26,479 nucleotides of DNA from an uncultured Desulfurococcaceae archaeon (GCA_964517475.1 CAZFDB010000001.1:1-26479), one strand, 5' to 3'. Positions 13,186-15,536 are shown, numbered from the stretch's first letter. The notes: generated from the letters alone by a model not told the origin. Translations and numbers: made by a program.

Positions 13186-13947
13186 TCAGGGAATAATAAT
13201 TAAATCAAGATCTTTTACGAGAAAAGATCTCTCAAATAATTTTCTGGCTTCTAAGATTATTTTCTCCTCATCTCGATATCTAGAGCTTATATGATATAGA
13301 TATAATCTTTCAGCCTCTGATTTTAAAGCTATTTCAACAGCCTCTGAAACAGTGCTGTGTCCCGAGATCACAGCCTCTTCTAGATCCTCTGAAGAAAATG
13401 TGGCGTCATGAATCAATATATTTGCTTTTTTACAGTGATTCACAACTTCATCGCATGGTCTCGTGTCTCCTGTGTAGCATATTTTGTAGCAATCTCCTCT
13501 ATGACTAATCTCTATCACGTATCCAAAACTCTCAATTGAGTGACATACTCTGAATCCTTTTATACGGATCTTGTTGAAAACATGTGTTTCCTCAGGATCT
13601 CTATACTCTAATTCAAAAGATAATTTATGTCGCGACACATTTAGGAAAATATTTATCAGATCTCTTATTTCTCGGGGGGCTATTACGTAGAGAGTATCTC
13701 TTCTATTAAAGAGGGTCATTGATTGTAGAAGAGGTAGTAATCCTATGAAATGATCACCGTGGAGATGTGTTATAGCAATAAATCTTATTTTGAGTGGTGA
13801 TAAACCTATTTGTTGAAGTCTTATCTGACAACCCTCGCCACAGTCTAGTAATCCTATCTCTTTATTGATCTCAATCGCTATTGAGGGATGCCAGCGACGA
13901 TTATTTGGAGAAGCTGCTCCACTACCTAGAAAATAGATCTTGATCAT
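13186..13947 (-). CDS. rnz: Ribonuclease Z (tRNA 3' endonuclease, MBL fold)
   Basis: FLGSGAA, DCGEGCQ, THLHGDHFIG, YTGDTRP, LIHDATF, GHST and YHISSRY. Confidence 0.93.
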   Translation of the reverse strand: MIKIYFLGSGAASPNNRRWHPSIAIEINKEIGLLDCGEGCQIRLQQIGLSPLKIRFIAITHLHGDHFIGLLPLLQSMTLFNRRDTLYVIAPREIRDLINIFLNVSRHKLSFELEYRDPEETHVFNKIRIKGFRVCHSIESFGYVIEISHRGDCYKICYTGDTRPCDEVVNHCKKANILIHDATFSSEDLEEAVISGHSTVSEAVEIALKSEAERLYLYHISSRYRDEEKIILEARKLFERSFLVKDLDLIIIP

Positions 13948-14813
13948 ATCCTCAGGACCTCTACATCGATTTTTTCAGCGAGATTCTCTAAGAGCCTTAA
14001 TTTATCTGATGTGAAAGATTTCTTTTCTACAACAACTAAATTTATTTTCTCATAAGATCTCTCAATACTATCCAGGAATATTCTCAGAAGATCATCGCTA
14101 CTCAATTCCTTGATAGAGTGCTTAGATATGATGTGACCGAAGCAGATCTTATCCTCAATACTCATTCTAGTGAATTTCTCCGAGTAATGAGGCCCCCCGA
14201 AACCCACCGCGAATTTTCTACAAAAGAAATTTTCACTGGATAAAGTCATCTGAATAGCTCTTAACCAAGCCTCGTGGAGAGCCTCATCTCTCCACTCCCT
14301 CTCTGTGGAACCTATCTCAACAAATATAACAGGTTTCTTATTACTCGTTGGACCATGATGAGTAGCCTCGAAACTAATTTCGTAATTTGATAAACCAGAT
14401 TCTTGAGCCACCTCATATATATTTCTTAGAAGAGTTGTTGATAGAGAGGGTTTGGTATATGATAACTCGAGTGGTCTTCCACCATGTGAAGTGTCTCTAC
14501 GTGGATTACCTGGGTAATGAACTGTTAGGCTAGGGATGGAAGCCGATGAGCTATGTCTCGATAAAATTATTATTGATTCACTTAATAAGAAGTATTGATC
14601 TAGGTATTCTAAATAGATAACATCATCCGAGAAAGCTCCTAGGAACTCTATATTATAAGAACTATTCTCATCAGATCTACACATGATCTTGAGCCTAGGA
14701 TCATTGTAATCAAAGCATTTCAGCTCTAGATCCTTAATTAATTTATGGGCTATACCACTACCAGCTAAATCATTTAAACTATACGCGAAACCGTATCTAT
14801 TCATCTCAACCAC
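13944..14813 (-). CDS. dtdA: Archaeal D-aminoacyl-tRNA deacylase (DTD2)
   Basis: SRHSS..PSLTVHYPGN, EATHHGPT, FVEIGS, VGFGGPHY and GHIISK. Start is GTG 14813 or ATG 14804. Confidence 0.9.
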   Translation of the reverse strand: MVEMNRYGFAYSLNDLAGSGIAHKLIKDLELKCFDYNDPRLKIMCRSDENSSYNIEFLGAFSDDVIYLEYLDQYFLLSESIIILSRHSSSASIPSLTVHYPGNPRRDTSHGGRPLELSYTKPSLSTTLLRNIYEVAQESGLSNYEISFEATHHGPTSNKKPVIFVEIGSTEREWRDEALHEAWLRAIQMTLSSENFFCRKFAVGFGGPHYSEKFTRMSIEDKICFGHIISKHSIKELSSDDLLRIFLDSIERSYEKINLVVVEKKSFTSDKLRLLENLAEKIDVEVLRI

Positions 14814-14865
14814 GATATACTCTATATATACAATAAATCTCTTGTTAAAAAGAAATAATCTTGGA

Positions 14866-14922
14866 TAAAATGATGATACACGCAGGAGCTGATTATGATG
14901 AAGCCCCGCATCACTGATGATT
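14866..14922 (+). ncRNA. Box C/D 2'-O-methylation guide sRNA
   Basis: C box ATGATGA 14870-76, 12-nt guide TACACGCAGGAG, D' box CTGA 14889-92, TT spacer, C' box ATGATGA 14895-901, 12-nt guide AGCCCCGCATCA, D box CTGA 14914-17. All four boxes are consensus with canonical archaeal spacing. Ends are approximate. Confidence 0.92.
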
Positions 14923-15536
14923 ATAAAAAGACTTTGGCCGAGACCCTCAGAAAAAAGATCTCTGAGCTGGATAAAAGAGATTTGATTAGGGAGAATGTTA
15001 TTAGGATCTCTAGAGACTTGATTAGATGCTCTGGTAAAGTAGTATCAAGTATATTAGCAAATAACATAGATGAAGCTAAAAGAGAAATGGGTAGTTGCAG
15101 TGACTTGTTAGAGGATCTCGCGAAACACTACTATGAGGCCCCAGATCTAGTGAGAGGGATCGCTACACAAGCATTCACAGAATACTGTGAAGCTCTACTA
15201 CTCCTTAAAATATTCTCGGGAGATACTGAGGAGTGCGGTGATAAGATCCCTCCGGAGAGTGTGGTGCTTGGAGTACTAGATCTCACAGGAGAATTAAGGA
15301 GAGTAGCTATAAAACTACTAGGTGAATGGGATCTTGATACGGTGAAAGAGATAATAGATCTTATAAAAAACATATATCTAATCCTAAGCCCACAAGATTA
15401 TTCAGATGCCATAGCACCTGGGTATAGGCATAAAATAGATGTTTTGAGAAGAAATATTGAGGATCTAGAGACACTATATAGCGATATTAAAACTAGGAGA
15501 GATCTTATAGAGTCGCTGAGGAAAATCACTCTATGA
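14895..15536 (+). CDS. Translin/TRAX (C3PO)-family RNA-binding endoribonuclease
   Basis: All-helical protein with QAFTEYCEA and GVLDLTGELRR motifs. Start is uncertain (ATG 14895/14898 inside the C' box, or TTG 14934). Confidence 0.85.
   Translation: MMKPRITDDYKKTLAETLRKKISELDKRDLIRENVIRISRDLIRCSGKVVSSILANNIDEAKREMGSCSDLLEDLAKHYYEAPDLVRGIATQAFTEYCEALLLLKIFSGDTEECGDKIPPESVVLGVLDLTGELRRVAIKLLGEWDLDTVKEIIDLIKNIYLILSPQDYSDAIAPGYRHKIDVLRRNIEDLETLYSDIKTRRDLIESLRKITL

Follow-up and report, generated by a model that had tools for sequence, protein, structure and literature searches.

A box C/D guide sRNA gene that runs into the start of a TRAX-type nuclease gene in an uncultured Desulfurococcaceae archaeon, and the linkage of the two across the order

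The window considered here (the whole stretch of DNA that was analysed, 26,479 nt) is contig C1 of G000, a metagenome-assembled genome that is 72% complete, 1.23 Mb long and 38% G+C. On its plus strand, a small RNA gene of the box C/D guide class runs directly into a gene for an archaeal nuclease of the TRAX (C3PO) type. The two genes have 23 bases in common, and the start codon of the protein gene lies inside the C′ box of the sRNA. The features of the locus are as follows (boxes, guides and spacers are read from the sequence, TATA-like blocks were called by eye and their promoter role is putative):

13944-14813, minus strand: D-aminoacyl-tRNA deacylase (PF04414, identified by Pfam), the divergent neighbour, with a 56-nt intergenic region shared with the sRNA
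14831-14838, plus strand: TATA-like block P1 (CAATAAAT)
14846-14853, plus strand: TATA-like block P2 (TTAAAAAG), at -49 from the ATG at 14895
14870-14876, plus strand: C box ATGATGA, RTGATGA in five congeners although non-coding
14877-14888, plus strand: D′ guide TACACGCAGGAG, 12 nt, an orphan, carrying the SD-like AGGAG at 14883-14887
14889-14892, plus strand: D′ box CTGA, the same in five congeners whose D′ guides differ
14895-14901, plus strand: C′ box ATGATGA, two bases after the D′ box, including ATG 14895 and ATG 14898
14902-14913, plus strand: D guide AGCCCCGCATCA, 12 nt, doubling as the K-P-R-I codons
14914-14917, plus strand: D box CTGA, inside the codons ACT GAT
14895-15536, plus strand: archaeal TRAX (C3PO-type) nuclease gene, 213 aa (Pfam, PDB alignment and 24 homologues)
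14934-14936, plus strand: TTG, once proposed as an alternative start, in frame, 16 nt after the D box; rejected
15180-82, 15189-91, 15279-81 and 15291-93, plus strand: codons of the catalytic residues E96, E99, D129 and E133 (by alignment)

The arrangement at 14870-14917 is that of a textbook archaeal box C/D guide sRNA, with all four boxes in place and both spacers exactly 12 nt long. A regular expression for this strict four-box pattern finds one match in the 1.23-Mb assembly and zero in 10 shuffles. At gathering thresholds Rfam gives zero matches for the sRNA; in a permissive Rfam search of a 106-nt stretch, about a dozen archaeal C/D families match over their full length, on the plus strand only and with the same boundaries, the top match being snoPyro_CD (32.4 bits, E 1.2e-5 for the 106-nt search, under the cut-off of 45). 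The sub-threshold score does not count against the C/D class, because the models represent sRNAs of Pyrococcus and Sulfolobus specifically. Both non-coding boxes, C and D′, which lie upstream of the start codon, are kept in five congeners, and the upstream flank and the D′ guide around them diverge. The predicted fold of 14858-14930 is no more stable than shuffles (z = 0.13), as expected for a K-turn RNA and hence uninformative, and beside the C and D boxes only a weak terminal stem is seen. Judged by its boxes, its 12-nt spacers, the full-length Rfam matches and the conservation of the non-coding boxes, 14870-14917 is a genuine C/D guide sRNA gene, and the sRNA that an earlier note on this DNA had called is real.

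The ORF at 14895-15536 matches the Pfam family Translin (PF01997) with 38.9 bits, above the threshold of 25.9, and its best solved relative is the TRAX of Archaeoglobus fulgidus (3zc1; E 5e-18, query residues 16-202). Four acidic residues, E96, E99, D129 and E133, are invariant among 24 homologues from 13 families; they are the E-x-x-E and D-x-x-x-E set that had been picked out by eye in the earlier note, correctly as it turns out. The set aligns with A. fulgidus TRAX; D129 and E133 correspond to D193 and E197 of human TRAX, and D129 to the Asp that is Ala in the mutant 3zc0. By these residues the ORF belongs to the catalytic (TRAX-like) branch of the Translin/TRAX superfamily, and nuclease activity, in that branch the Mg2+/Mn2+-dependent RNase activity of an octamer, is predicted for its product. 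We know of no cellular role or substrate for archaeal TRAX/C3PO. On the opposite strand, both genes at 13186-14813 are tRNA-related: next to the deacylase lies a possible RNase Z, a 253-aa protein of the metallo-beta-lactamase fold with an HxHxDH motif. This deacylase/metallo-beta-lactamase neighbourhood is conserved within the genus only.

The D guide finds a target in tRNA. In the congeners G001 and G002, whose guide is identical to that of the window, it forms 11 bp with nucleotides 23-33 of tRNA-Gln, and G26 sits opposite the fifth D-guide position upstream of the D box. C/D guides direct methylation of the nucleotide that pairs with this fifth position; by that rule the D guide looks like a working one, which would direct 2′-O-methylation of G26 in tRNA-Gln and, in its variants, in tRNA-Pro. 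The 10-mer GATGCGGGGC, or its variant GATGCGAGGC, matches one and the same position of tRNA-Gln(UUG/CUG) and tRNA-Pro(UGG) in five of five congeners. Each of them has the 10-nt core in tRNA-Gln(UUG), in tRNA-Gln(CUG) and in one intron-containing tRNA, and a one-base variant of it in tRNA-Pro(UGG). Such tRNA sites make up five of the six non-self 10-mer matches in G001 and G002, and the Gln(UUG) and Pro(UGG) identities of the target tRNAs were confirmed with ARAGORN. Further afield, the sequence in tRNA-Gln targeted by the D guide is unchanged in families f7 and f10. In G003 and G004 the guide carries a change from CCC to CCT that is silent for the protein and removes a C-A mismatch, so that tRNA-Pro is matched perfectly, and tRNA-Gln remains paired with this variant via G-U. 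In the window's own 72%-complete assembly ARAGORN finds 13 tRNAs, tRNA-Gln being absent (as are 16S and 23S rRNA), and the tRNA-Gln target is therefore demonstrated solely in congeners with an identical guide.

Other searches gave no further target. The sole perfect 12-mer match in the window's own genome (C77:2615) lies inside a coding region and was judged a chance match. Neither guide matches the 16S or 23S rRNA of the congeners G002, G003 and G005 with one mismatch or fewer. For the D′ guide, exact and G-U-tolerant genome searches returned matches in coding regions only, and it is treated as an orphan; an 11-mer target search with one mismatch was too noisy and was set aside. Several target-bearing tRNA genes contain introns (L039, L043, L047, L048, L056 and L057: Gln-CUG, one Gln-UUG and a probable Pro), some at non-canonical positions directly after nucleotide 32-38; ARAGORN misses them without its intron option. 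With introns in its target genes, the guide could act on pre-tRNA. A separate observation concerns rRNA: the matches in G003 far exceed the Rfam models (23S, 4971 nt; 16S, 3001 nt; L033 and L036, G003:C44:45735-53873), which suggests large rRNA introns or insertions.

Where the sRNA and the protein gene overlap, the ORF opens ATG ATG AAG CCC CGC ATC ACT GAT (MMKPRITD), so that the D guide and the D box read K-P-R-I-T-D. The first 32 codons were compared, one at a time, with those of six relatives that belong to genera g1 and g3. At the second ATG of the C′ box (14898), every g1/g3 relative compared (six or seven) has ATG as well, and the codon at the first position is ATG, GTG or TTG, with the exception of ATC in G005. 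The TRAX homologues of the sister genus g2 have a similar N-terminal length. Upstream, AGGAG (14883-14887) lies 7 nt before ATG 14895, at -12, on the genome-wide SD peak, and it is complementary to CCUCCU at the 3′ end of 16S rRNA (GGAUCACCUCCU). Across 197 well-defined starts in G000, the peak of SD-like tetramers lies at -13..-10 and that of TATA-like hexamers at -47..-36, and a leaderless peak is absent. With an SD peak and no leaderless peak, the lineage appears to use short SD-containing leaders, in which it is unlike Sulfolobus and Pyrobaculum; a leaderless mRNA beginning at the C′-box AUG was down-weighted on the same grounds. G005 has lost the C and D boxes, yet it retains ATG AAA CCT AGC ATT ACA (MKPSIT), which differs from the N-terminus in the window by four synonymous changes and one non-synonymous change. 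A peptide kept through synonymous changes reflects selection for the protein sequence itself once the RNA was no longer a constraint, and an N-terminus kept without the sRNA boxes indicates that the overlap is dispensable for TRAX. Translation of TRAX thus very probably begins in the C′ box, at 14895 or 14898. The earlier note had taken ATGATG of the C′ box as the start of this ORF, with the D guide and D box coding within MMKPRITD, and the comparison confirms it: this is the only start conserved in relatives.

Beyond the genus, members of the same sRNA family (C box, conserved GGAACCCCGG element, C′ box, guide GCCCCGCAU and D box, in that order) are found in most families of the taxonomic order. 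The sRNA adjoins TRAX in 7 of 13 families and in 14 genera, in four geometries. By family, its position relative to TRAX is:

f1 (g1, g3): sRNA overlaps the TRAX 5′ end
f7 (g9, g25, g29): sRNA 30-70 nt upstream of TRAX, same strand
f12 (g14, g21): sRNA 56-72 nt downstream of TRAX, same strand
f2 (g45, g52, g53, g55): sRNA downstream at a distance of about 330 nt, a small ORF separating it from TRAX
f6 (g8) and f8 (g50): convergent with overlapping 3′ ends, the end of the D guide lying opposite the TRAX stop codon on the other strand
f4 (g6): degenerate sRNA remnant upstream of TRAX

The linkage is therefore conserved in relatives, which had been put forward as a check on the pairing. The sRNA is not linked to TRAX in f9, in f10, in parts of f2 and f8 and in the one f5 genome in which the sRNA was confirmed. 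The four protein genes that flank TRAX in the window are next to it solely inside genus g1; outside the genus all of its protein-coding neighbours change, while the sRNA link persists. Family f7 is of particular use in reading the overlap. In six of its genomes the spacer between sRNA and TRAX contains an SD-like GGTGA or GGTGG and is too short for a promoter, and in three the D guide is already in the TRAX frame (..PRITD..) with the start codon absent. Given this arrangement, the overlap in the window looks like a secondary fusion of an older sRNA-TRAX pair. A search with a sequence model of the family returned only the TRAX-overlapping copy in G000-G004 and, in G005, a copy at another locus.

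Several further features of the family and its surroundings deserve mention. The G005 copy (L120:1255-1310, minus strand; G005:C3:60754-60809) follows an unrelated ORF of 253 aa at a distance of 50 nt, and its guide, GGCCUUGCAUCG, pairs with tRNA-Gln/Pro via G-U pairs. In the long, ancestral form of the family, GGAACCCCGG stands just after the C box (L014:1366-1444, L024:2154-2227, L078:1424-1490 and others); this element is lost in g1. Its complement is found in the T arm (CCGGGGUUC, nucleotides 48-56) of tRNA-Gln, the very tRNA targeted by the D guide. Because the element is too distant from any D′-like box for the fifth-nucleotide rule, it may be an accessory pairing region. In f2, the small ORF between TRAX and the sRNA is conserved (about 100 aa, LRGLWRRH.AEETGY; L091:911-1234, L121:950-1243, L118:310-612 and L023:2117-2428), with its stop codon in the C box of the sRNA; a homologue of it was not found in the window's genome.

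In a listing of sequencing runs, the locus occurs in two hot-spring metagenomes, both of DNA. Upstream of the sRNA, the two TATA-like blocks could bear on how the two genes are transcribed. They are by-eye calls calibrated on genome-wide positions, ambiguous and unconserved across G003, G004 and G007. An 11-mer from the P1 region (ACAATAAATCT) is identical in G000, G001 and G002. P1 would predict a transcription start near 14860, some 6-10 nt ahead of the C box, as suits a promoter of the sRNA or of a co-transcript; it may equally be the promoter of the divergent deacylase (DTD) gene. P2 would predict a start at or inside the C box and could be a separate mRNA promoter, and the two products would then be uncoupled. 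In G002, an 11-nt insertion shifts the P2-like block, moving the predicted start to about 10 nt upstream of the C box, so that the same block would there yield a full sRNA-mRNA co-transcript. G005 has a TATA-like TTTTATATAG at -43..-34 from the conserved ATG.

The reading we prefer, at a probability of roughly 0.6, is that of a dual-use locus: a predicted G26-guide sRNA, its 3′ half fused with the 5′ end of TRAX, on a shared transcript. Ancestrally, as in f7 to this day, the sRNA would have preceded TRAX on one strand with a gap of about 30-60 nt; the ancestor of g1 and g3 would then have lost this spacer, and its ORF would have grown into the sRNA. A single transcript from P1, starting near 14860 upstream of the C box, would carry both functions. 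If L7Ae, Nop5 and fibrillarin assembled on this transcript and its flanks were trimmed, the start codon and the SD-like AGGAG would be buried or removed; if ribosomes loaded before them, the transcript would act as an mRNA. It follows from the geometry that the two fates would be mutually exclusive on any one molecule; a regulated switch built on this, as the earlier note proposed, is hypothetical. A wider suggestion would place the sRNA and TRAX under joint selection in one pathway, TRAX either acting on tRNA-Gln/Pro precursors or fragments or trimming the sRNA from the transcript, as the earlier note also imagined. In the genus of the window the fusion would add a competition between sRNP and ribosome, which could link the level of the nuclease to the availability of L7Ae, Nop5 and fibrillarin. 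This suggestion is speculative, and we consider it unlikely as things stand; the only hints of a functional tie are the conserved linkage and the precedent of Neurospora, whose C3PO degrades 5′ pre-tRNA fragments (as cited in PMC5100593).

The main competitor of a shared transcript is a pair of independent, overlapping units, with P1 driving the sRNA and with P2, or an A/T-rich block adjacent to the C box, driving a TRAX mRNA that would start within the sRNA gene. There would then be no common precursor, no competition and no coupling to L7Ae, except possibly via the internal C′/D′ motif. The spacing of the two TATA-like blocks, 15 nt, would allow such separate 5′ ends, and P2, 49 nt before ATG 14895, falls close to the genome-wide TATA-like peak given above; the G005 gene, which has no boxes, also has its TATA-like element ahead of the same ATG. 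What speaks for the shared transcript is the G002 insertion, which puts the start predicted from the P2-like block before the C box rather than within it, together with the f7 spacer, which holds an SD and leaves no room for a promoter; the TATA calls themselves, made by eye, are the ones that fail to recur in G003, G004 and G007. On this balance two independent units seem somewhat unlikely.

Two other explanations would each remove one half of the dual-use locus, and both fare much worse. Were TRAX to start at TTG 14934, as the earlier note had allowed, the sRNA would lie wholly in the 5′ UTR and MMKPRITDDYKKT would be untranslated. The codon is indeed in frame, and the alignment with A. fulgidus TRAX begins only at query residue 16. 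The aligned codon, though, is a start codon in none of six relatives (TTA, TTA, CTG, TTA, CTT, CTA), and among the first 32 codons of G005, G003 and G007 there is no other ATG, GTG or TTG. An SD-like motif is absent before 14934, and G005, although freed from the RNA constraint, has retained K-P-(R/S)-I-T across four synonymous changes, which speaks against an untranslated leader. A start at 14934 is accordingly very improbable. Equally improbable is a relic, an sRNA no longer made or functional in the genus whose motifs persist as coding sequence only. The D′ guide without a target and the weak terminal stem would fit a relic, as would the rarity of predicted targets among the 5′-overlapping guides of Pyrobaculum (2 of 17; PMC6009581). 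Coding constraint, however, does not reach the C and D′ boxes, which precede the start codon and are invariant in five congeners amid variable bases; the D guide retains 10-11 bp of complementarity to tRNA-Gln; and G000-G004 have no second family member that was found, whereas the box-less G005 has a copy elsewhere.

The locus matters in several ways. We know of no route by which the ribose methyl of m2,2Gm26 arises in most archaeal tRNAs, and the locus would supply a candidate guide RNA for Gm26 on tRNA-Gln/Pro across an order of hyperthermophiles. It would be a rare case of a guide under RNA and protein-coding constraint at once. The conserved gene pairing is a starting point for testing whether TRAX acts in tRNA or sRNA metabolism, and the fusion is a clean natural test bed for the published proposal that sRNP assembly and translation would compete on sRNA-mRNA fusions, G005 having already reversed it.

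Parts of the arrangement resemble systems that have been described. The protein shares its family, its length and its ExxE...DxxxE set with the archaeal C3PO/TRAX homo-octamers (A. fulgidus 3zc0/3zc1; Nanoarchaeum equitans, PMC5100593), and E-x2-E / D-x3-E is the two-metal catalytic site of the N. equitans C3PO (PMC5100593); in contrast to both, the window protein adds a 9-residue, sRNA-derived N-terminal extension. For the RNA, thermophilic archaea are known to carry ribose-methylated m2,2Gm26 in their tRNAs, and in Pyrococcus furiosus C/D guides have been predicted for tRNA G26 (Wolff et al., 2020, PMC7668247). The predicted outcome here is alike, ribose methylation of tRNA position 26 via a C/D sRNP, but the targets are Gln and Pro rather than the Val and Gly of Pyrococcus, and the sRNA is of a different family with no sequence relation shown. 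A precedent for control by L7Ae is the l7ae 5′ UTR of Sulfolobus acidocaldarius, where EMSA and reporters demonstrated autoregulation by L7Ae through a K-turn (Daume et al., 2017, PMC5539422). In both loci an L7Ae-type motif, putative here, lies beside the SD or start codon, where binding would mask initiation; the l7ae motif is a simple K-turn in a dedicated leader, whereas the motif here belongs to a complete guide sRNA and is recognised by its sequence and its position relative to the SD and start codon.

The closest parallel comes from Pyrobaculum. Lui et al. described 17 sRNAs that overlap ORF 5′ ends in sense (category 1), the ORF starting in the C′ box or the D guide. They suspected co-transcription and had already proposed that such RNAs are either excised or translated and that L7Ae, Nop5 and fibrillarin interfere (Lui et al., 2018, PMC6009581). 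Work by Tripp et al. (2017) is also tied to Pyrobaculum sRNA/ORF overlaps, as cited in the same paper. By its published definition the window locus belongs to category 1: it shows a sense C/D sRNA-ORF 5′ overlap that goes beyond the D box and takes in the D guide, and translation would begin in the C′ box. With the type of arrangement and the regulatory idea both published, the finding is not a new mechanism. The earlier note's statement that the pairing had not been described consequently stands for TRAX as the partner (none in the literature searched, and no paper combining 'translin' with 'box sRNA') but not for the mechanism, which is in PMC6009581. The Pyrobaculum cases differ in two respects. 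The overlapping guide is an orphan in 15 of 17 of them (PMC6009581), while here the orphan is the D′ guide, which does not overlap, and the overlapping D guide keeps a target conserved across the order; and neither a TRAX partner nor an order-wide linkage is described there. What is new, as far as sequence comparison carries it, is thus TRAX as the partner, an overlapped guide that has been retained and looks functional, and an association of sRNA and TRAX that extends across the order.
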